From Candidatus Omnitrophota bacterium (GTDB lineage Bacteria; Omnitrophota; Gorgyraeia; 1-14-0-20-64-10): a stretch of DNA of 62,928 nt. The DNA lies in assembly GCA_016201735.1 (NCBI GenBank), contig JACQCH010000002.1:1-62928 (forward strand), given 5' to 3'. A program made the position numbers and the translations under genes. Each line of letters starts with the position of its first letter. The stretch's first letter is position 1. Under the pieces are notes generated by a model. That model was not told the origin of the DNA. It ran no database searches and saw nothing but the letters and a program-made list of their open reading frames with translations. Positions 1,821-62,766 of this stretch are shown here, one piece after another.

Positions 1821-2524
1821 AGCCCGAACAAAAAGCGGAAGAAACGAAGGGTATCCCGGCCCGGCCGGATAAAACTTGTATTCCGGTCATAGACGGAGCT
1901 GACCGGGATCGAGACGATCCGGGCCCCGGCCCAGGCGGACTTCACCAACAGCTCCGATTCAATCTCGAACCGGTCGCGGTCCAGATCCACCTGTTCCAGA
2001 ACCCGGCGGCCGATGAGGCGGAATCCGCATTGGGTATCGGGGAACCGCTGACCCGCGACGGAGGATAGGATCCGGGACATCAACCAGTTGGTGAGGCGCC
2101 GATCCAAAGGCATCCCCTTTGGGTTCTCCATCCGGTTCCCTAAGATCAGATCCGCGGATCCTTGGGCAGCCGCCTCTAAGAACCGGGGAATCTCCGAGGG
2201 AAGATGCTGTCCATCGGCATCCATGGTTAGGATCCAATCGTAGCCGGCCTTCAGGGCATGCTCCAATCCTTCCCGCAGGGCCCTCCCCTTGCCCCCGTTG
2301 ACCTGTCGCCGGATCACTCTGGCCCCGGATTCTTCCGCCCGTTGGGAAGTTTGATCCGAAGAAGCATCATCCACGACAATGACGGGCAGCCCCTGCGCGG
2401 CGGCTTGACCCACCAACGAGCCAATCATCGCCTGGGCCTGGTAGGCGGGGATCAGGACAACCGCATTGAGGGAGCGCCGGTTCGACTCAGAGGATGACAC
2501 TGGGCCCGGGCGTCCAGAAGTCAT
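1802..2524 (-). CDS. Family 2 glycosyltransferase
   Basis: ORF 1802..2614 trimmed to the in-frame ATG at 2524. VVLIPAY..VVDDASSD..DADGQH motifs of GT2 enzymes. Start uncertain. Confidence 0.75.
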   Translation of the reverse strand: MTSGRPGPVSSSESNRRSLNAVVLIPAYQAQAMIGSLVGQAAAQGLPVIVVDDASSDQTSQRAEESGARVIRRQVNGGKGRALREGLEHALKAGYDWILTMDADGQHLPSEIPRFLEAAAQGSADLILGNRMENPKGMPLDRRLTNWLMSRILSSVAGQRFPDTQCGFRLIGRRVLEQVDLDRDRFEIESELLVKSAWAGARIVSIPVSSVYDRNTSFIRPGRDTLRFFRFLFGLWKSRR

Positions 2525-3371
2525 GAAAAATATACCACTGCGTTGGATAGCGGCGGATGTATCTCTCCATGACTTCCAAGCAGGCCTGGCTGATCTGGCG
2601 CACCGCCTCTTCACGCTTCAAATCGGGCGGGACGGTGATGGGGCGCTCGAGGATAAACCGGTAGCGCCCACCCGGTTCCCGCACCAGGAAGCCGGGAACA
2701 ATCGGAGCCCTGGTTCTTAGATAAAAAGCGGCCGGGCCAGTTGGAACATCCAGCCACTTGCCGAAGAAAGGGAGTTTCAAACCATGATTGGAGAAATCCC
2801 GGTCGCCGACCAAGGCAAGAATCTGGTTGTTCCGAAGAACCGACAGGGCCGATTCAAAGAAAGACCTCCGACCGGCTTGGGTCAACGGGATCCCCCTGAC
2901 CCCTACCCGGCCCCTCTGCCTTTCAAAGAAAGCGTTCACGCGAGGGTTCCGGTGCGTCAGCACCACCGCATTCACCGGCAGTCCCGAGAGAGCCAGGACA
3001 GCCCCGGCCAGCTCGTAATTCCCCAGATGAGCCGTCAATCCGATCGCTCCCCGTCCGGATCGAAGAACCTCCCGCATCCAGTCCAATCCTTCGATCGTCA
3101 CCTGTTGTCTCATCTTCTCCGGGGAGAGCCGCTGGAAGCGGAAAAAATCGACCAGGTATTTCCCAAAATTTCGGAACACCTCCCGCACTTGGGCTTCGGA
3201 AACCTCCCGGGTTCCAAGGATCTGTTCCAGGTTGTGCCGGACTCCTTCCCGGTCCTTGGCGCACCACAAGCACCAGAAGTCGGCCAGCCGGCAGGCGATC
3301 CAATAGGAAACCGATCTCGGCAGAAGCAGGGTTCCCCATGAACCAATCCAATACAGCGCGTAGAAAAACAC
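2487..3371 (-). CDS. LpxL/HtrB-family lipid A (lysophospholipid) acyltransferase
   Basis: 294-aa ORF with GTG start. Length and the C-terminal YPTQWYIFHDFW resemble the lauroyl/myristoyl acyltransferase family. Confidence 0.7.
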   Translation of the reverse strand: MFFYALYWIGSWGTLLLPRSVSYWIACRLADFWCLWCAKDREGVRHNLEQILGTREVSEAQVREVFRNFGKYLVDFFRFQRLSPEKMRQQVTIEGLDWMREVLRSGRGAIGLTAHLGNYELAGAVLALSGLPVNAVVLTHRNPRVNAFFERQRGRVGVRGIPLTQAGRRSFFESALSVLRNNQILALVGDRDFSNHGLKLPFFGKWLDVPTGPAAFYLRTRAPIVPGFLVREPGGRYRFILERPITVPPDLKREEAVRQISQACLEVMERYIRRYPTQWYIFHDFWTPGPSVIL

Positions 3372-3376
3372 TTACT

Positions 3377-3399
3377 GTCGCCAACCGCGAGTTCTCAGC
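3377..3399. repeat. Solitary copy of the TIR of the rplB/rpsS element
   Basis: GTCGCCAACCGCGAGTTCTCAGC matches GTTGCCAACCGTGAGTTCTCAGC (22744-22766) at 21/23 positions. It fills the 23-nt gap between two CDS, and its TGA is the stop of the upstream gene. Confidence 0.55.
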
Positions 3400-4513
3400 A
3401 CATCATCCCCAAGACGAGCCGAGCGGCCTCACTGGCGGAGTTGGGCCTTCCAAGCCGTTTTGAATTGGCGGCCATCTGGGCGAGCTCCTGGGGATGCGTC
3501 AGAAGATGCTCCACGATCCGGGGCAGGGCGTCAGGGTCATCCACTTCCCGAGCCACATTGGCCCTTTCCAGGAAGTTCGCGTTCTTGACCTCTTGCCCTG
3601 GAATAGGATTGATCACAATCAATGGGAGCCCCGAAGCCAACGCCTCGGAAGTGGTCAGCCCCCCCGGTTTGGTCACAAGGAGAGTGGCCACCTTCATCAG
3701 CTCCGCGATAAATCCCACGTGCCCGAACACCCGGACCGAACAACGCAGACGGGGAATCTGTGAAATCAGCCGGTGATAAAGCCGCTCGTTGCTGCCGGCC
3801 ACCACCAACAACTGCAGCGGTTGGTCAATCGAGTCCAAGGCCTTGACCGCTTCCAGGAGAGGGCCCAATCCCTGACCCCCTCCCATGAGAAGGATCGTAG
3901 GAACCCCATTGGAAATCTGGAGCCGCCGCCGGATCATCTCAATGTTGGGGACCTCCGCGAAGCGGGGATCGATTGGGATTCCTGTCACGAAAATCTTCGC
4001 CGGGTCCACCTGATGATCCACCAGCCACTGACGAGTTTGATCAGCGCCAACGATGTAGCCGTCGACCAGGGGGTGAATCCAATAGGCGTGGGGATGAAAA
4101 TCAGTAATCGCTCCATACAGAGGGACGGAAACCCCATGCTCCTTCTTGTAGTCGGCCACCAAGCCGCAGGGAAAGGCCTGGGTGCAGGCGATCGAATCGG
4201 GTTGGAATTCATCCAGAAGGCCTTTCAAGCGGGGGGAATCGTACCGGTGGAGCAGCTGGCGAAAATGCTCCGAGCGCTCCACCACCTTCGGGTTGTCGTA
4301 CAGATAATCCCACAGGTCCGGCAGTTTCTGGATCACCGACATGTACATCCGGTCCACGATCCGGGCCAAGACCGGATTCAGATACTGGAAGGCGTCGATG
4401 GTCAGGATTTCGGCCCCGGGGTTTAAGGTGCGGATCCCCTCCTCCAAGGCCCGGGCCGCCTGAAAATGGCCCGAGCGGACCGTGATGTACATCAACAAGA
4501 TTTTCTTGTGCAT
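3395..4513 (-). CDS. MGDG-synthase/UgtP-like diacylglycerol glycosyltransferase (GT28)
   Basis: 372-aa ORF. N-terminal KILLMY..SGHFQAARAL and the C-terminal GT-B fold motif GGLTTSEALA resemble the remembered family. Confidence 0.7.
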   Translation of the reverse strand: MHKKILLMYITVRSGHFQAARALEEGIRTLNPGAEILTIDAFQYLNPVLARIVDRMYMSVIQKLPDLWDYLYDNPKVVERSEHFRQLLHRYDSPRLKGLLDEFQPDSIACTQAFPCGLVADYKKEHGVSVPLYGAITDFHPHAYWIHPLVDGYIVGADQTRQWLVDHQVDPAKIFVTGIPIDPRFAEVPNIEMIRRRLQISNGVPTILLMGGGQGLGPLLEAVKALDSIDQPLQLLVVAGSNERLYHRLISQIPRLRCSVRVFGHVGFIAELMKVATLLVTKPGGLTTSEALASGLPLIVINPIPGQEVKNANFLERANVAREVDDPDALPRIVEHLLTHPQELAQMAANSKRLGRPNSASEAARLVLGMMC

Positions 4514-23842: not shown

Positions 23843-24126
23843 CAGACAGCGACCTCAATTTTGGATCCCTCAGCCAGCGTCACCGCCGCTTTCTTCCAGT
23901 CCGGCTTTAAACCCCAGCGGGCCCCGACACGGCGGGGTTTGCCTGAAACGACAGCGGTGTTAACGCAGTTTACCTTCACCTTGAACAACTGCTCCACCGC
24001 CCGTCGAATCTCCGGTTTGGTCGCTTTAAGATCCACCACAAAGAAATATTTCCGCTGGGCGGCCTGCTTGGTTCCTTTCTCGGTCCGGAGCATCTGCCGG
24101 ATGACATCTTCCGCGACTCGGCTCAC
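23842..24126 (-). CDS. rplW: Ribosomal protein L23
   Basis: 94 aa with GTG start, 8 nt after GGAGGG contributed by the family-2 element. Confidence 0.92.
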
Positions 24127-42557: not shown

Positions 42558-43331
42558 TCAAAACGCTGATACTTCTCGATTCCGTCTCCCCAACAAAAAA
42601 AACGAACGACATACAAATTCAATGAGCCGAGCGATTGGCCTCATTTCGACGAACACAATCAACATCCCCATTCCAAATAGGATGGCTGGAAAAAACCATC
42701 GATTCACCGCCTCGCGCCCCAACAATAGGTTTTGTGCTAACAAACGAACTAGATCTTCCGTGTTCGCTTTTTCGATTACAGCCTCGGAAACAACGGATTT
42801 CCGCATAGACATTGTAAACAACGAGACTGAAACGGAAAAAAATACCATACCGACCCCAAGATCGATTACTTTGGGAATCTTAAGGGGAAGCCGCCCCCGC
42901 TGCAATATCCGCTTAATTTGTGTCTCCAGATCATCCGAAAATAGAGAGCACCAGTCCCGTGATTCATAAGTAAGAGTAAAACCAATCGGCCCGAATCTTT
43001 TTAAATTCTCTCTGTCAGAATTGAATCTTAAGAATGCGTAAAATCTCTTCCGAACCGAATCATTCCCATCCGGGCGCTCTAATATGACGACTAAACCAGT
43101 TATTTCGTTCCCAAAAGAGTTCTCGTCTTGGAAAACCTCCTCCAGATCCTTTGTCTCGTAAAATGATTGATCCTCATGCTCTACACGGAGTATGAAGGTG
43201 GGTTCTATTCCCGTCTCTTCTTTTATTTTGGTTCCAAACCTTCGAAAAACATCTACGATTTTTCGAAGGTTATCCTCCTTTAATATGAAATGCTGTTCAA
43301 AATTCTTGTGCCTACCAGCTCTATTTTCCAT
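42558..43331 (-). CDS. Hypothetical protein, soluble N-domain plus two or three C-terminal TM helices
   Basis: 257-aa ORF in a visibly AT-richer stretch. No motif I recognise. Confidence 0.55.
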   Translation of the reverse strand: MENRAGRHKNFEQHFILKEDNLRKIVDVFRRFGTKIKEETGIEPTFILRVEHEDQSFYETKDLEEVFQDENSFGNEITGLVVILERPDGNDSVRKRFYAFLRFNSDRENLKRFGPIGFTLTYESRDWCSLFSDDLETQIKRILQRGRLPLKIPKVIDLGVGMVFFSVSVSLFTMSMRKSVVSEAVIEKANTEDLVRLLAQNLLLGREAVNRWFFPAILFGMGMLIVFVEMRPIARLIEFVCRSFFLLGRRNREVSAF

Positions 43332-43367: not shown

Positions 43368-43452
43368 TGGGCAGGAGAGGATTCGAACCTCTGTAGACCT
43401 CTCGATCATCAGGTTTACAGCCTGACCCCTTTAGCCACTTGGGTACCTGCCC
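43368..43452 (-). tRNA. tRNA-Tyr (GTA), class II with a long variable arm
   Basis: Hand-folded: GGGCAGG acceptor, anticodon loop CTGTAAA, 85 nt. Confidence 0.9.
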
Positions 43453-44110
43453 GAATCAATGTGCCGGCTTCTTGCTCAATCCAAGAGAGAATTTGTTGAA
43501 GTAACCGTTTGTCACTGTACCGAATATGAAACACGCCGTTGGGTAATACCTTCTGCCTAACTCGGCCAGATCGAAATCTGCTGATATAGGGTTTGAAGAA
43601 TTGCGATTCGGGAATCCGAGTTAACTCACTCCAATACCGACGAATATGATCGACATTCTGTCCTTCATAAATGTAGAGGAAAGCACGCAGGCGCGACTCT
43701 GAAACGCCGCAGATTTCTCTCAGGAATCTTAGAAAAACTAAAATAACCTTCGGATCAGTATTGGCGAGATCGACCGTATGGTGCTGCTTCGCGCCCTCAC
43801 CCCAATAAAGCATCAGGCCGGCCGTTTTAAGGCGCCTTTGGGCCTGAGATAACTCTTTGCGTAGTATAAAAGCCGGTTTATCACGATAAACCAGATAATT
43901 GCTCTCGCTCCGGGTTCGACGGGAAATACCGTGCTTGCGCATTAACTCGTACAGGACGTGTTTGTTAATCTTTGAGATCTTAGAAATCTCTGGGATGGAA
44001 CGTTGCTCCTGCCAATACCGCTTCCGAAGTTCTTCGGGAGTAATGGCATCCCGAAGAATCCATCCGCGGTAAACTTCTAGCTGGTCCCAGGCGTAACGAT
44101 TGGAGATCAT
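43415..44110 (-). CDS. Putative HTH plus LAGLIDADG-like (homing-endonuclease-like) protein
   Basis: ORF trimmed to the ATG at 44110. AGLMLYWGEGAK resembles a LAGLIDADG-type motif, and an N-terminal helix-turn-helix-like segment is present. AT-rich. The 3' end overlaps tRNA-Tyr by 38 nt. Assignment is from memory only. Confidence 0.4.
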   Translation of the reverse strand: MISNRYAWDQLEVYRGWILRDAITPEELRKRYWQEQRSIPEISKISKINKHVLYELMRKHGISRRTRSESNYLVYRDKPAFILRKELSQAQRRLKTAGLMLYWGEGAKQHHTVDLANTDPKVILVFLRFLREICGVSESRLRAFLYIYEGQNVDHIRRYWSELTRIPESQFFKPYISRFRSGRVRQKVLPNGVFHIRYSDKRLLQQILSWIEQEAGTLIRAGTQVAKGVRL

Positions 44111-44167
44111 CTTAGAATTTTCATCTCGATAGTACCCGTATTGTACGAAGAGAAACAACGGATGACA

Positions 44168-44239
44168 AGCTGGCGAGAGGAATTGAACCTCCAACGTCCT
44201 GTTTACAAAACAGGTGCTCTGCCGTTGAGCTACGCCAGC
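44168..44239 (-). tRNA. tRNA-Thr (TGT)
   Basis: Hand-folded: GCTGGCG acceptor, anticodon loop TTTGTAA, T-loop TTCAATT, 72 nt. Confidence 0.9.
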
Positions 44240-57396: not shown

Positions 57397-57708
57397 TCAG
57401 GCCGCCTTAGCCCGATGAGGATGGAATCGGACTTCGAGTTCGCTGTCCAAAGCAACGGCGAGCTTCACCAAGGTTTCCAGACTGAAATTATGGGTTTCAC
57501 CCGATTCCAGTTTGGCAATGAAGGGCTGGCTCACTCCAATGCGGTGTGCAAGCCCTGCCTGGGTTAATCCTTGTTGTTCCCGGAGCCGAATGAGGGTATC
57601 CACGATCCGAAGCTTCTCCAGTTCCTCTTCATAGCCCTTCCGAAATCTGGCATCTCTCAGAAGAGATCTGAGCACCTCCTGATGAGTTTTAGCCCTTATT
57701 TGCTTCAT
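57397..57708 (-). CDS. XRE-family HTH antitoxin (HigA-like)
   Basis: 103 aa; LTQAGLAHRIGVSQPFIAKLESGE HTH. 4-nt overlap with the upstream toxin gene. Confidence 0.75.
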   Translation of the reverse strand: MKQIRAKTHQEVLRSLLRDARFRKGYEEELEKLRIVDTLIRLREQQGLTQAGLAHRIGVSQPFIAKLESGETHNFSLETLVKLAVALDSELEVRFHPHRAKAA

Positions 57709-58076
57709 AGTAACTCACCTCCCAAAGAAACTTCTCCTTGTCGGTATCGCCGCAGGAAATCTTGCATATGGGTTAATGCAACCCGCTTCTCTCTTTCCGG
57801 CAGCCTATCCGTTCTCTTCCGAAACAGATGAACGACCACGGCGTATTCTTTGAGCATAAAGAAATACAACACCCGATGCGCTCTGGGTCGAAGCTCATAA
57901 ATCTTGTCGCCAACGTAATCCGCCATCGGCCGGCGAAGTTCCTCACCCTTTTCTTCCAACAGCGAAATGTAGGCAAATATCTTCTGTTGCTCTTCCAATG
58001 TGAGCTTATGGATATCTTCAAGAATCGGGCTGTCACCCCCTGCATCAACGTAGTAAACAACCCTCTTCCTGCCCAT
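57705..58076 (-). CDS. RelE/ParE-superfamily toxin, Gp49/HigB-like
   Basis: 123 aa; IYELRPRAHRVLYFF..VVVHLFRKR pattern. The toxin-first order is typical of higBA. Confidence 0.7.
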   Translation of the reverse strand: MGRKRVVYYVDAGGDSPILEDIHKLTLEEQQKIFAYISLLEEKGEELRRPMADYVGDKIYELRPRAHRVLYFFMLKEYAVVVHLFRKRTDRLPEREKRVALTHMQDFLRRYRQGEVSLGGELL

Positions 58077-58111: not shown

Positions 58112-58130
58112 GAAAAAAATAGGGAGGATT

Positions 58131-61100
58131 TTACGCGTAGAGGTAAAGCTTGCGCTGGCCGGCCTTCTCTTCGACCTCGAAGCCGAGAACGATCCCTCCG
58201 GCCTGCCGGATCGCCGCCAGCACGACGGCCAGATCCCGGGGGGTATTCCTCAACTTGTCGAGCGCGGACAAAACAGCCGGAGTCATCACGATACCGGGGG
58301 TCTTGCGGCCTTCGAGAATCTTAGTCCACGCTTCAACGTCATCCCCGGCAACTTTCGGGTCAACGAGCGCAAGATCTGTCGCCCCAGCGTTTTTGCCCGC
58401 GAGAAAACCTTCCGCTTCCTTTAGACCAGGCGGCAAGGGCAAGGTCTCACGAACCAGTTCCCGTTCCCGCCACACCGCCGGAACAATCTCCTCACCATGT
58501 GTAAAAATCCGGCCAATGGCGGCGACAGCCGCTGGATTGATATCGCTCAATTGATTCAAATCAATCTCAAGGGTTATCTTCTTTCCCGCCGCCACATTTA
58601 AGTTGGGTATAACCTGGTCATCCGCCAGCTCGGTTCCATTCTTAAAGAGTCCTTCGTACTGGGTGGTCGCAGCCGCGATCCGCGCCTCCACTTCCTCCAA
58701 ACCGGCAGATAGCTTTTCCACCACCTTGGTCTTCCCTTCATCATCAATCTCGATGATCTTAAGAACCCGTTTAGCCGCCTCCTTGGCACCTTTGTCTTTG
58801 TAAGTTTTCAGGAATTCATCGAATTGGTCCTTCTCCATGATCAGGACGGCACGTCCAACCGTCTCTTTCCCTTTAAAGGGAGATCGATCGACTGTCTTGA
58901 CCGTCACGCGGCCTTTCGTGCTCACACGATGCATGGCTTTACGATTATCAAAGGGTTGAATATACCAACTGTCTGTTTTAATAAACGGAACCCCAACGAG
59001 TTCTTTCCCGACCAGCTCTTTGGGAAGGAGAAGGTCCAGGGTAATTTCCAACGCGGTAAATTTCGTCGCCTTATCGTCCTTGACACCAAACTCTTTGGCC
59101 GGCTGAATCGGTTTCCCAGGCATTTCGGATTTAGCCCGGACAATGACGGTGAGAATCCGGTGAGCCGTCACAGGACTGGCCGTATGGATGTAAACCCCTC
59201 CCACACGATCTCGGTCGTCTTTCATGGCCTTGTAAGCTTCAAGCAAAGCCGGACCAATTTCAGTCTCCTTGCCGAAGAAACTCGGAGTACCTACTTCCTT
59301 CTCGGGAATTGTCTCCACGCCAATCTGGAAGGTCACCTTCTCTTCTTTCGTCCGCGCGCGCACAGTCTCAGAGACATCCGCTATCCCTTTTGCTGTATCT
59401 CGATAGGTCATCGCAGCGATCTCGGTTTTTTCAAGAGTACGCAATCCCTTTACCGTAACACCACTGTCAGTTTTATGATCATTCTCATACCAAAAAGGCT
59501 CAAAGCGGGTCAGGAGAGGTCCTCTGACCACGCTCTTTCCGTCCGGGTGCCGCTTTTGGCGGGCAAACGCCTGAACTCGTGGCAGGATGACACCTTCAAG
59601 CAAATCCATGTAACCTTTCAAGTCGCCTTTCCACCCTTTTTGAGTATAGGGTTCAATATCCGTTGCAAAAGCGATTTGAAGTTTGCCTAAGTTGAGCCGG
59701 GCTAGCCTGACTGTTAAATCCTGATAGTGGCTGGCGACAAATAGTCGGTTTTCAGCCCAATCATGATTTCCATCGATGAAGCCCAAGGTCTTCAAACCTG
59801 CTTGGGAAGCCTGGGTGAGCAGCGCTTGCTGTTGCTGAGCTGTAAGCTGCCGAAAACGGAATCCGCTGATCCAGACGACGTCTACACCTGTTTTAACCGC
59901 TAGTGAGAAGAAATCCTTGAGACGAAACAAATCTCTGGGATCCCAAATAATAATTCCGAGTTGTTTATCTGTTCCTAATTCCTTCCGTAAATCCGCCAGA
60001 GCGCCTACTGGACCTGTGCTTATCTGGGCTTGAGCCAAGCCATAAAATTCAGGAACCAACGTTGCTGTAATCCCGCCCGCTGCAGCAGCTTTTAAGAAAT
60101 TACGTCGAGATATACCATAACCGGTACGCTCCTCCAAACCGGCGGCATTGGATTTGGAACGGGACCACTCTTCAACATATCCCATGTTGTCCCGGTAATG
60201 ATTGCGCGAACCGGTCAGGATCATGGAGACATCCGGATTGTTCAACAGTCTGAAATAACTTTCCTTTTCGGTGATGGACCGGTCGCCTTTGCGGATGACC
60301 GAGTTGAGCACAATGGCCTTGCCATCCGCCCGAAGCGCCCGAACCAGATCGGGACGTTTCAGAAAGACAGGGCCGGGCATCTGGATAACATCGAAAGGAG
60401 AAAGCAGATTCTCCCGAACGGCTTCCTCCAGCACCTCCTCTCCAGAGATGGAAGCCCCGAGGAACCGGATCCCTCCATGTCTTTCTTTCTTCATCCGAAC
60501 CATTTCGTCCACGATGGGATGATCCCGAAAAACATCAGCCGTGGCACCGCCCACCATGTGGATATAGAGAAGGTCGATCCTGCCCAGATATTTCATGCTT
60601 TGGGCAACCGATTCTTGCAGATTGGAGACCGAGTAATCGGACCGGAACTTCCACTGATCCTTAATTTCTTTCGAAGAATCGTAGGTCTGTTGTTCTCCCC
60701 ATTTCGTGGCGATGAAGGCCCTTTTGAATCTTTCTGGCCGCGATCGAAAATACTCGCCCAGCTTCTCTTCTGTGAAGCCATACGAAGCGGCGGTATCAAT
60801 CATCACCACCCCATTTCGATTCGGCACTCGATCAAATACCTGATCCAGATACGCATCGATCTCCTGCTTCTCTGGATAGGTATAGGAAGCAATGTTATCT
60901 GGTGTCCATGGCCGGCCCATCCAAATGGTTCCAGCCCCCAGAACATGAAACTGAAGGCCGGTCCCACCAAATTCCCGAATCACTCCCTCCTCCAGGCCGG
61001 CTTCTTTTTTCGGCGCGGGCACAACTTCGGTCATGTGGGCCTCTTGATCGATGAGATAGAATTTATCATCAACCACCATAAGGACTTCTTTCTGATCCGG

Positions 61101-62672
61101 GCTCAATCCACGAATCACCGTCTCATCCACTGTAAATTTCGGCGGCGGGATGGGTCGGCCTTCTCTTTCAAGGCGCTCTCTAAAAATGATACCTATGTCC
61201 TGTTTAAAATGAATAACGGGGACGTAGTCTTGATCCTGAGGATGAAGACGCATCATCACAGTCACGATCGAACGATCCCGGGACATGGCACGCGAAACCC
61301 TGCCAGACAAGGGATGCGCTCTCCTCCCTTCAAGACTCATCACATCCTTCTCTGAAAAGACTGGAGCCACGACGCCGGTAGCAGAGTAGAGTACGGCAGC
61401 CGCTGTCTCGGCATCGTCTGCCGTACGAATCGGCTTGAATTTATTCAGAGAAACTGGAACAGGAGCTGGCGCCGCTGGGAGAGGGGGAGCGGGTCGTTTG
61501 GGCGACAGCACGAAGACAGTCCCATCTTTTTCAATATCCAAAATAAGTCGCACTCCCGATACGTTTGCAATAATCTCATCGAGGGGTAACCCTCTGGCAG
61601 ATGCGGAATAGAGCATTTCCCCCTCTGCAGGGGTGTTTGCGACGACAACAATGCGCCGCTCTATCACGTACCAGCTCTCATCCGGATCCTTTTCCAACCC
61701 TCTCGGCACCTCAAACGACACAACGCCGTCCCCCGGCGTTCGGCGCGGAAAAGGTCGCCTCACCGTCCATCTTTGATCACCCGGCCTGTCCCTGGGAGGA
61801 CGTAAACCGTAGACGGGGTTCGACAGGAAACCGTTCGGAAACCGCACGGTAAGGTCTCCTGAATTTTGATCCACAACCGCCTTAAAAAGAGGCGAGGGGG
61901 AAGAGTCGAAGCCCGGGATCCGAACTGCAGGAACTGCCGGTCTGGAAAGCTTATTGTAGGTAGCGAGACCAGCGACAGTGGCGGTTGCTCCAACTGCAGT
62001 TCCAACGGCACCCGCCAGCAATTCCCTCCGCGTAATTCCCTTCTCCTCCTCCATCCCGGCGGCGGGCGGGGCATCCCCGAGCGAACGACCTATGATGGTT
62101 GCGAAGGTCCGGTCCCTCGGTATGAGTCGGCTGTCGCCACCGACGATGGTGATGGTCAGGTCGAACAGCGTCGGCTTGTATTCGGCGATCAGTTTGTCCA
62201 GATCCTTGAACCCCTCCCACGGCCTATTCAAGGCGAACGACGTACCACCATCCACTTCCCCTGACTCGTCGTGGTAGACGAATCCCCAAGGCAGGTAACT
62301 GCTCAACTCAGCCTTCAGCTCCGAGACGCTGATCCCCGATTTCTCGAAGAGGACTTCCTCCCCGCCGGCGGTGGATGATGGACTCGACAAGGGGCTTAGA
62401 ACAGGCCGGATTGGAGCCGCCGAAGTGGAAGGGAGGCCAAGGGTAGCGCTGGCAAGATGGATAGCAGCTTTCCCGAAATCGTCAGGGTTGCCGGAACGGA
62501 GAGCTTGCTCTAAACCGGATAAAACCCCTTGTTCCTCCTCGGAAGGTTCCTGATTCCGCAGGGCCCCTCGGCTGAGCTCGGGGTAAACTCCGGCAGGGTT
62601 TGGCAGACCAAGCGCGAGGGATAAGGAAAGGGCTGTGAAACGGGTTATCAATCTTGGGTAACGGTTGTTCAC
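58131..62672 (-). CDS. 1513-aa modular protein: signal/TM N-terminus, five modules joined by A-G-(L/M)-E-E, central aldo-keto reductase module
   Basis: Single uninterrupted frame. Module 560-845 has AKR motifs (GTGLQF, DTAASYG, ATKWG, LLYIHMV). RRELLAG.. and SRRNFLKAAAAGG are Tat-signal-like segments at aa ~214 and ~855. GTG start; lower GC than neighbours. Confidence 0.75.
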   Translation of the reverse strand: MNNRYPRLITRFTALSLSLALGLPNPAGVYPELSRGALRNQEPSEEEQGVLSGLEQALRSGNPDDFGKAAIHLASATLGLPSTSAAPIRPVLSPLSSPSSTAGGEEVLFEKSGISVSELKAELSSYLPWGFVYHDESGEVDGGTSFALNRPWEGFKDLDKLIAEYKPTLFDLTITIVGGDSRLIPRDRTFATIIGRSLGDAPPAAGMEEEKGITRRELLAGAVGTAVGATATVAGLATYNKLSRPAVPAVRIPGFDSSPSPLFKAVVDQNSGDLTVRFPNGFLSNPVYGLRPPRDRPGDQRWTVRRPFPRRTPGDGVVSFEVPRGLEKDPDESWYVIERRIVVVANTPAEGEMLYSASARGLPLDEIIANVSGVRLILDIEKDGTVFVLSPKRPAPPLPAAPAPVPVSLNKFKPIRTADDAETAAAVLYSATGVVAPVFSEKDVMSLEGRRAHPLSGRVSRAMSRDRSIVTVMMRLHPQDQDYVPVIHFKQDIGIIFRERLEREGRPIPPPKFTVDETVIRGLSPDQKEVLMVVDDKFYLIDQEAHMTEVVPAPKKEAGLEEGVIREFGGTGLQFHVLGAGTIWMGRPWTPDNIASYTYPEKQEIDAYLDQVFDRVPNRNGVVMIDTAASYGFTEEKLGEYFRSRPERFKRAFIATKWGEQQTYDSSKEIKDQWKFRSDYSVSNLQESVAQSMKYLGRIDLLYIHMVGGATADVFRDHPIVDEMVRMKKERHGGIRFLGASISGEEVLEEAVRENLLSPFDVIQMPGPVFLKRPDLVRALRADGKAIVLNSVIRKGDRSITEKESYFRLLNNPDVSMILTGSRNHYRDNMGYVEEWSRSKSNAAGLEERTGYGISRRNFLKAAAAGGITATLVPEFYGLAQAQISTGPVGALADLRKELGTDKQLGIIIWDPRDLFRLKDFFSLAVKTGVDVVWISGFRFRQLTAQQQQALLTQASQAGLKTLGFIDGNHDWAENRLFVASHYQDLTVRLARLNLGKLQIAFATDIEPYTQKGWKGDLKGYMDLLEGVILPRVQAFARQKRHPDGKSVVRGPLLTRFEPFWYENDHKTDSGVTVKGLRTLEKTEIAAMTYRDTAKGIADVSETVRARTKEEKVTFQIGVETIPEKEVGTPSFFGKETEIGPALLEAYKAMKDDRDRVGGVYIHTASPVTAHRILTVIVRAKSEMPGKPIQPAKEFGVKDDKATKFTALEITLDLLLPKELVGKELVGVPFIKTDSWYIQPFDNRKAMHRVSTKGRVTVKTVDRSPFKGKETVGRAVLIMEKDQFDEFLKTYKDKGAKEAAKRVLKIIEIDDEGKTKVVEKLSAGLEEVEARIAAATTQYEGLFKNGTELADDQVIPNLNVAAGKKITLEIDLNQLSDINPAAVAAIGRIFTHGEEIVPAVWRERELVRETLPLPPGLKEAEGFLAGKNAGATDLALVDPKVAGDDVEAWTKILEGRKTPGIVMTPAVLSALDKLRNTPRDLAVVLAAIRQAGGIVLGFEVEEKAGQRKLYLYA

Positions 62673-62737
62673 TATTTATCCGAACGGGTTCTTTCTCCTG
62701 GGAGACTTCGTCAGTCCTTATTTTACGCCTACTGCTA

Positions 62738-62766
62738 AAGATACCTGACGAGAGACCGATTGTCAA
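62738..62766 (-). promoter_or_regulatory. Putative sigma70-type promoter of the giant ORF
   Basis: RNA-sense TTGACA, 17 nt, then TATCTT, about 65 nt upstream of the GTG at 62672. Confidence 0.45.

Follow-up and report, generated by a model that had tools for sequence, protein, structure and literature searches.

The locus studied here raises the question of how one uninterrupted reading frame can look like five proteins welded together. The window, by which we mean the whole stretch of DNA that was analysed (62,928 nucleotides (nt) of a Candidatus Omnitrophota bacterium, contig JACQCH010000002.1 of GenBank assembly GCA_016201735.1), carries a giant open reading frame (ORF) on the minus strand (58131..62672) that encodes 1,513 amino acids (aa) between a GTG start and a TAA stop. 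The original prediction had divided this ORF into in-frame pieces of 206, 353, 286, 479 and 189 aa joined by a recurring A-G-(L/M)-E-E junction, and had offered three mechanisms: a polyprotein cleaved at the junction, nested internal initiation, or the scar of cassette-joining recombination. The pieces, the junction positions and their central codons were found as claimed, and of the three mechanisms the first gave the best fit. We put at about even the chance that the ORF encodes a bacterial polyprotein, of a type seen mostly in Candidatus Omnitrophota, whose pre-proteins would be cut apart at the junction by a protease acting in trans; such processing is what we infer from the sequences described below.

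Four clear junctions are present in the ORF. AGMEE at aa 205-209 (GCCGGGATGGAGGAG, 62046..62060), AGLEE at aa 558-562 (GCCGGCCTGGAGGAG, 60987..61001) and AGLEE at aa 844-848 (GCCGGTTTGGAGGAG, 60129..60143) were recognised both by their DNA pattern and in translation, and AGLEE at aa 1323-1327 (GCCGGTTTGGAGGAA, 58692..58706) in translation; all lie on the minus strand, and their central codons are ATG (62054), CTG (60995), TTG (60137) and TTG (58700), respectively. The 15-mer GCCGGNNTGGAGGAG that had been put forward as the junction sequence has three exact matches in the 62.9 kb, all inside the giant ORF, where 0.02 were expected; the fourth junction is not among them, as it ends in GAA and not GAG and departs from the 15-mer in its last base. 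A degenerate SGLEQ (aa 52-56, 62505..62519, minus strand) was located where it had been predicted, at the same position as the first GLEE of related proteins. A second degenerate copy, AGGEE (aa 102-106, 62355..62369, minus strand; the third copy of repeat family D4, recognised in translation), had been missed. The pattern G[LMQ]EE occurs four times in the ORF against about 0.07 times in shuffles of the protein, and the sole other AGLEE of the window (nt 23902) is found in a non-coding frame overlapping rplW.

An open frame of this length could in principle result from stop codons lost by mis-assembly, and a recurring motif from base composition. The ORF lies at the contig end and an identical protein is not on record anywhere else, which leaves room for such an artefact. 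Nevertheless, because the other two frames of the same strand contain 64 and 65 stops over the same stretch, the 1,513 open codons are clearly kept up and not accidental. The same architecture was found for relatives in independent assemblies (NCBI, ENA, JGI and Logan), and the motif is at least 30-fold more frequent than in shuffles. Assembly error and composition, both raised by the original prediction as ways in which the junction could be spurious, are effectively refuted by these independent relatives, and we consider an artefact next to impossible. An alternative genetic code was rejected as well, as the ORF has no in-frame stops of any kind and the neighbouring genes are normal.

The family of related proteins was opened by an exhaustive HMMER search with aa 844-1513, covering the last two of the five modules (M1 to M5), which yielded 78 proteins. 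Word-index searches with the whole ORF, with M1 and M2 or with a profile of M5 retrieved nothing beyond the window's own protein or three short fragments, a GTDB scan with the whole protein was without hits, and three short contigs were all that a narrower M5 alignment detected in metagenomes. The relatives range from 183 to 4,868 aa, with one partial relative of more than 5,475 aa. Their named source genomes are mainly Candidatus Omnitrophota metagenome-assembled genomes (MAGs), one being labelled Planctomycetia; of the GTDB loci with M4, 2/3 are titled Candidatus Omnitrophota/Omnitrophica and 1/3 'Planctomycetia'. The S12 protein encoded in the window is identical to one from the MAG GCA_023248075.1 (83% nucleotide identity), and at the DNA level the S12 gene of the window is identical to a contig from run SRR12113409.

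In 79 related proteins G[LMQ]EE was found 131 times against 4.4 expected, always between modules, and in 19,080 residues from ordinary neighbouring genes on the same contigs it does not occur at all. The logo of 130 sites has Ala (52%) or Ser (22%) at position -1, an invariant Gly, then Leu (85%), Gln (11%) or Met (5%) and two Glu, followed by a small residue; the flanks are otherwise unconserved. Some proteins have variants of their own, like AGQEE in P0063, AGLE[A/S] in P0016 and PGLEE in P0008. The junction is kept across at least 48 family proteins while the flanking modules change, and the median spacing between junctions is 378 aa. M4 and M5 were found with varied partners and at varied positions. 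In the homologues of M4, for instance, the junction always comes directly after the C-terminal end '...VVE.L..', whatever module comes next, and M5 is in its own subfamily always found at the extreme C-terminus, in proteins of 183 to 3,797 aa. Elsewhere in the family the terminal domain is a different one, or the last junction is followed by a tail of only 11-25 residues.

The stretches between junctions correspond to whole enzymes. Pfam domains in the relatives never straddle a junction: P0064 has GPI (glucose-6-phosphate isomerase) at 548-711 and TAL and TKT (transaldolase and transketolase) at 2408-3461, with junctions at 66, 789, 1791, 2287 and 3542, and in P0049 GH77 (4-alpha-glucanotransferase, MalQ) and GT5 (glycogen synthase) are parted by the junction at 1066. 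Further domains found in relatives include FTHFS (formate-tetrahydrofolate ligase), 2-Hacid_dh, SIS, epimerase and HATPase. The question whether modules also occur as separate genes is answered by the window itself. In a relative of 1,419 aa, the stretch from aa 664 to 1195, which falls exactly between its junctions at 653-662 and 1213, aligns at 43% identity with the stand-alone fhs of the window, whose gene adjoins the giant ORF. This enzyme thus occurs both on its own and built into a chain. Within the ORF, M3 (aa 563-843, 60144..60986, minus strand) belongs to the aldo-keto reductase (AKR) family (Pfam PF00248, E 5.4e-16, 58.9 bits against a cut-off of 24; PDB 4exa, E 3e-8), and the canonical N-terminal signature of this family begins 3 residues past junction 2. 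The 286-aa piece had been called a complete aldo-keto reductase. The family assignment stood; the profile was matched over positions 5-195 of 291 only, its C-terminal third being unmatched in M3, and the word 'complete' rests on the length and the N-terminal signature.

The level at which the junction is kept can be judged from its codons, which were surveyed for 53 junctions from seven loci (the window, L004, L010 and L012-L015). The wobble position of Gly is essentially random, Glu is GAA in 26% at each of the two positions, Ala is encoded by GCC, GCG, GCT and GCA, and Ser by TCC or AGC. Because the wobble positions of Gly, Glu and Ala vary in this way, selection most probably acts on the junction peptide. 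The original claim that the junction is conserved at the nucleotide level is weakly true, in that the codon choice shows a moderate bias: junction Ala is GCC in 74% against 41% in the background and junction Leu is TTG in 46% against 21%, with CTC and CTT depleted among the Leu codons.

In the second of the three mechanisms the modules would be translated separately, either from the NTG of the junction or from a start codon past the GGAGGAG that it contains. The central codon is TTG, CTG or ATG in 37 of the 53 junctions, about two thirds of the junctions hold a GGAGG string that resembles a Shine-Dalgarno sequence, and gene callers sometimes start a gene at a junction (P0009 and P0021). Still, such nested initiation is very improbable, as the other 16 central codons (30%; ten CAG, the rest CTC, CTT and TTA) are unable to initiate and no Shine-Dalgarno sequence was found upstream of the junctions. 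The idea that GGAGGAG itself serves a downstream start was rejected too, since no start codon recurs at a suitable, fixed distance past GGAGG and Glu is often GAA. Separate starts would moreover leave the need for stop codons.

Genes that appear to start at MEE were not accepted as evidence for separate modules. P0009 (L020 5838-6003) was called from the ATG of its SGMEE junction, yet its true open frame extends further 5', as far as an ordinary leader of the signal type, which shows that automatic gene calling can break up or shorten polyprotein genes at their junctions. The closest relative of M5 (L001 1-707, about 70% identity) is a decayed copy, with an in-frame stop 8 codons before ...KAGMEE and an M5 domain that is truncated at its C-terminus.

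According to the third mechanism the junction matters mainly as DNA: recombination would join cassettes in frame at this short site or stretch of microhomology, and the peptide would be a by-product. The codon bias goes beyond what the peptide requires, and modules are shuffled with the junction as the breakpoint. The GC content at third codon positions (GC3) of the giant ORF is atypical (0.50-0.67 against 0.78-0.81 in rpoB/C, tuf and fhs) and depends on the module (M1 0.67, M2 0.54, M3 0.59, M4 0.50 and M5 0.65), which is consistent with a mosaic origin of the modules, and a toxin-antitoxin pair adjoins the ORF, which is also flanked by an imperfect 21-nt direct repeat. Nevertheless, the junction is quite unlikely to be a pure recombination scar, because only the moderate bias for GCC and TTG remains while the wobble positions are free. 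At the protein level, the tolerated changes are conservative ones (A/S; L/M/Q), and the two central bases differ between the four junctions of the window (GA, CC, TT and TT), which would bar most pairs of junctions from site-specific exchange. A site-specific or integron-like cassette site was rejected: the wobble positions vary and no recombinase was seen beside the polyprotein genes in the gene lists of the loci examined. DNA-level joining may contribute to the evolution of polyprotein genes without being the function of the motif.

Further indications for a polyprotein come from the ends of the chain and from the sequences that follow the junctions. In 28 relatives the protein opens with a leader that consists of a basic stretch, a hydrophobic stretch and P-x-P-A-Φ-A-L-R, and the first junction lies 1-15 residues (occasionally more) past it. 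The leader in the window (aa 1-51, 62520..62672, minus strand), with a basic n-region, a hydrophobic stretch and LPNPA...ALRNQ, is a variant of this type in which 8 aa are inserted compared with the family consensus P-x-P-A-Φ-ALR, and it is related to the leaders of P0067, P0057 and P0066. At the other end, the C-terminal residue is Ala in 37 of the 48 motif-bearing proteins (77%) against 3 of 39 neighbouring genes (8%). This Ala (nt 58134-58136 in the window) holds across differing terminal domains and across the tails of 11-25 aa, and is usually preceded by hydrophobic residues (e.g. ...LYLYA, ...LLLAA and ...AIFA); such ends resemble C-terminal recognition tags.

Signal-like sequences were found directly after many junctions: a twin-arginine (Tat)-like motif occurs within 25 aa after 16.4% of the junctions against 1.7% of random positions, a hydrophobic stretch after 34% against 13%, and one or the other after 37%. 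The distance from the junction E-E to the R-R is 3-8 residues, equal to the normal length of a Tat n-region. In the window, at the start of M2 (aa 210-557, 61002..62045, minus strand), an RR motif together with a hydrophobic region rich in Gly, Ala and Thr (aa 215-237, nt 61962-62030) gives a Tat-like segment that remains below every curated cut-off. M4 (aa 849-1322, 58707..60128, minus strand) opens with a Tat signal (aa 854-872, ISRRNFLKAAAAGGITATL, 60057..60113, minus strand) that starts six residues past junction 3, shows the S/T-R-R-x-F-L-K type of motif ahead of a mildly hydrophobic h-region, and scores 24.8 bits for PF10518 (cut-off 22.7) and 23.8 bits for TIGR01409 (cut-off 16.7). Because R-R follows E-E at 3-8 aa and the signature of the aldo-keto reductase at 3 aa, the natural N-termini of the modules appear to abut the junction. 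In the uncut chain the Tat signals begin at aa 215 and aa 854, away from the N-terminus of the protein; an N-terminal position would hold for them only after cleavage at the junction.

A fourth explanation leaves the chain whole, as a giant multi-domain fusion associated with the membrane, in which the hydrophobic or Tat-like segments are anchors and AGLEE is a spacer that acts as a hinge, as a docking site for a partner protein or as punctuation for co-translational folding. A 2026 preprint (bioRxiv 10.64898/2026.06.07.730766) reads similar, longer proteins in this way, as uncut and membrane-anchored chains; the hydrophobic segments taken there as anchors occur about once per 370 residues, which matches the median junction spacing of 378 aa, and for the present family no protease was seen in cis or nearby. 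We regard this explanation as rather doubtful, though as a serious contender. Left uncut, the window protein would contain three successive signals that are all oriented in-to-out (basic or RR residues ahead of the hydrophobic stretch) with no return transmembrane segment, and because of this its topology would be inconsistent. The hydrophobic regions after the junctions are weak and rich in Gly, Ala and Thr, like Tat signals rather than transmembrane segments, and many modules are ordinary cytoplasmic enzymes without any hydrophobic segment (transketolase, GPI, FTHFS and glycogen synthase). Moreover, a spacer whose flanks are free to vary would have no need of five residues that are almost invariant in distant lineages. 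The impossible topology of an uncut chain, together with the plainly cytoplasmic enzymes embedded in it, argues for release of the modules.

For the polyprotein we envisage the following course of events. One mRNA with one start would give a single chain of leader, several complete but unrelated pre-proteins and a terminal domain; the cargo in the window would run from an unassigned module via a Tat-like unassigned module and the aldo-keto reductase to the TIM-barrel protein with the Tat signal, with each boundary marked by [A/S]-G-[L/Q/M]-E-E. This pentapeptide would be recognised in the cytoplasm by an endopeptidase with sequence specificity, the gene of which would lie elsewhere in the genome, and the chain would be cut there. 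Cytoplasmic enzymes would be set free as such, and modules with a twin-arginine or Sec-type signal right after the junction would then be exported on their own. Candidates for the bond that is cut are those after Ala, after Gly and after Glu-Glu. Cleavage after the Ala at -1 would leave all products with a C-terminal Ala like that of the chain itself, and cleavage after E-E would give clean signal peptides. The leader and the terminal domain would presumably also have their roles in this process.

Several observations weigh against such processing. A Pfam scan of the window ORF and nine relatives revealed no peptidase domain, and no protease recurs beside the polyprotein genes in the loci examined; because none is present in cis or recurs nearby, the protease would have to act in trans. 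The conserved terminal domain M5 (aa 1328-1513, 58134..58691, minus strand; it ends in ...GQRKLYLYA) is no obvious protease either. For its AlphaFold2 (AF2) model (pLDDT 92, pTM 0.85) neither PDB nor the viral structure library BFVD gave a significant match, and the domain lacks an invariant catalytic residue, there being no invariant Ser, Cys, His or Asp across the relatives. The codon bias at the junctions, although moderate, is not explained by a purely peptide-level signal. Since the family was seeded from M4 and M5, the enrichment of Tat signals is in part inherited from homologues of M4. Furthermore, internal Tat signals can work in uncut polytopic proteins, for instance in the dual Sec/Tat proteins of the Rieske type, and the published account of similar proteins has them uncut, as described above.

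It is possible, but somewhat less probable than the reading of the ORF itself, that the phenomenon is lineage-wide, i.e. that Omnitrophota and relatives routinely express cytoplasmic and exported proteins as polyproteins that are cut by a dedicated protease at [A/S]-G-[L/Q/M]-E-E, with the leader and the C-terminal ...Φ-x-Ala as handling signals. Enzymes of central metabolism (transketolase, transaldolase, GPI, FTHFS and glycogen synthase) would then be included. If true, these bacteria would do with cellular proteins what viruses do with their polyproteins, in part as a substitute for operon-style translation, and the 'hundreds of TM helices' (TM, transmembrane) predicted in giant Omnitrophota proteins would mostly be the signal peptides of individual pre-proteins. 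Confirmed processing would represent the first case of a cellular organism that uses polyproteins as a general means of expressing housekeeping proteins, and could supply a new pair of a sequence-specific protease and its site for biotechnology. The junction provides a testable map of module boundaries, along which giant ORFs can be divided computationally before their structures are predicted and their parts annotated. It predicts the neo-termini that are to be expected in metaproteomes, and it gives a handle on the responsible protease, as protease families can be correlated with motif-rich ORFs.

The other modules of the ORF are less readily named. M1b (aa 107-204, 62061..62354, minus strand) has no assigned function, no match in Pfam, NCBIfam, PHROG or PADLOC and no relative among the fetched proteins. 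M2 is likewise unassigned, with no match in Pfam, NCBIfam, PHROGs or PADLOC and no homologue in the word-based search. M4 is the most widespread cargo family found (55 hits cover the M4 region) and consists, after its Tat signal, of a TIM-barrel-like core and a C-terminal beta-rich part; the AF2 model of the core is a TIM barrel (pLDDT 90, pTM 0.90) that has only generic TIM-barrel matches in PDB (TM about 0.45-0.5). The idea, suggested by P0058 and P0073, that M1b and M5 are split halves of an ancestral protein was dropped, as phmmer gave no significant similarity.

The ORF is located on a bacterial chromosome among rpo, tuf and ribosomal genes, its upstream side within the window being cut by the contig end. 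A promoter-like site (TTGACA-17-TATCTT, 62738..62766, minus strand) precedes it; this is a consensus match only, and such matches in the region are not above the number expected from shuffles. A defence-system or phage origin was rejected, since PADLOC gave no hits and PHROG only weak ones, to the aldo-keto reductase module. The imperfect direct repeat (81% identity) brackets the ORF with one copy over its stop codon (58128-58148, ATTTTACGCGTAGAGGTAAAG) and the other in the 5' leader (62720-62740, ATTTTACGCCTACTGCTAAAG), and could be due to chance or mark an insertion boundary. The toxin-antitoxin pair lies directly 3' of the ORF (57397-58076, minus strand) and comprises a HigB/Gp49-like protein and a helix-turn-helix antitoxin (HigA-like). 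Genes of the toxin-antitoxin type were also found 3' of other polyprotein genes, namely DUF5615/DUF433 (L014 21848-22433), a 119-aa protein with DUF2283 (L018 12373-12950) and HEPN (L001 717-1211). Such neighbours may mark polyprotein genes as variable or mobile cargo.

Elsewhere in the window two ORFs of 257 and 259 aa (42558-43331 and 43415-44194, minus strand) have a GC content of 0.43-0.47 against about 0.60 for the window, are without Pfam match and are interleaved with the genes for tRNA-Gly, tRNA-Tyr and tRNA-Thr beside tuf; they may be inserted foreign genes. Among the loci of relatives, we observed a polyprotein gene (P0002, L018 8246-12193) directly after ftsA at the end of a mur/fts cell-division cluster, the usual place of ftsZ. 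Tandem runs of three to four polyprotein genes on the same strand, 10-280 nt apart, were found in L010 (274-21394), L020 (1-13137), L013 (2746-26186) and L014 (1-21838).

How does this arrangement compare with known systems? Viral polyproteins, like those of picornaviruses, potyviruses and alphaviruses, also hold several complete proteins per ORF with a short conserved peptide at each boundary. In both cases small residues flank the site, and the positions of the Glu/Gln type in the junction recall the sites of 3C-like proteases. Unlike the viral systems, the present one has no protease module in cis, carries cellular housekeeping and exported enzymes on a bacterial chromosome and would be processed as judged from sequence; apart from the weak PHROG hits to the aldo-keto reductase module, searches of PHROG and BFVD revealed no phage or viral family or fold match for the window ORF. 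In MARTX toxins and in ubiquitin-fusion precursors unrelated modules of one chain are freed at linker sites, MARTX toxins having a cysteine protease domain of their own and glycine-rich repeat regions, and ubiquitin fusions being recognised through the folded ubiquitin unit. Here, in contrast, a linear pentapeptide is the sole common element of the internal boundaries, and the cargo is not toxin-like. In the dual Sec/Tat proteins of the Rieske type from actinobacteria a Tat signal likewise lies inside the chain, where the preceding transmembrane helices set the topology, whereas the present proteins have several Tat signals in succession with no return helices before them.

The junction does not fit the double-glycine leaders that C39 peptidases cut, in which a GG/GA-type site follows a conserved amphipathic leader: L-E-E has A-G or S-G before it, yet there is no conservation at positions -12 to -2. 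No C39 domain was found in the scanned polyproteins or their listed neighbours; a C39 enzyme acting in trans is possible, and C39 domains are common in other giant proteins of Omnitrophota (bioRxiv 10.1101/2023.11.21.568195 and 10.64898/2026.06.07.730766).

These giants are the closest counterparts. The arrangement had been described in the original prediction as unlike any known system. The fused multi-enzyme architecture is already known, however, from the 2023 preprint on giant genes and 'Archaeovorins' of Omnitrophota and from the 2026 preprint on their 'multi-enzyme metabolic cluster' giant proteins. As in the present family, one ORF is tiled by unrelated enzyme domains (in their case starch synthase, ROK kinase, methyltransferase, GNAT, HATPase and others), an N-terminal signal peptide is followed by recurring hydrophobic segments, which corresponds to our leader, to the signals after 37% of the junctions and to the 378-aa spacing, and the taxonomic home appears to be the same, our loci being mainly from Omnitrophota MAGs. 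A difference is size, as the catalogue starts at 10,000 aa or more, and the window ORF has 1,513 aa and its relatives 0.2-5.5 thousand aa. The texts of both preprints contain no relevant mention of a junction motif, linker, twin-arginine signal, proteolysis, common leader or common terminal domain, and full-text searches of the literature gave nothing relevant on the AGLEE motif, Omnitrophota polyproteins or bacterial polyproteins. The conserved junction, the leader, the terminal Ala, the signals right after the junctions and the polyprotein reading that they imply thus appear to be new. In the 2023 preprint cleavage was proposed from the presence of peptidase domains, and the cleavage points were stated to be unknown, the lack of known ones having blocked its analysis. 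If the giant proteins of Omnitrophota are cut, and at which points, is thus a question that has been asked explicitly, and the junction makes it directly testable.

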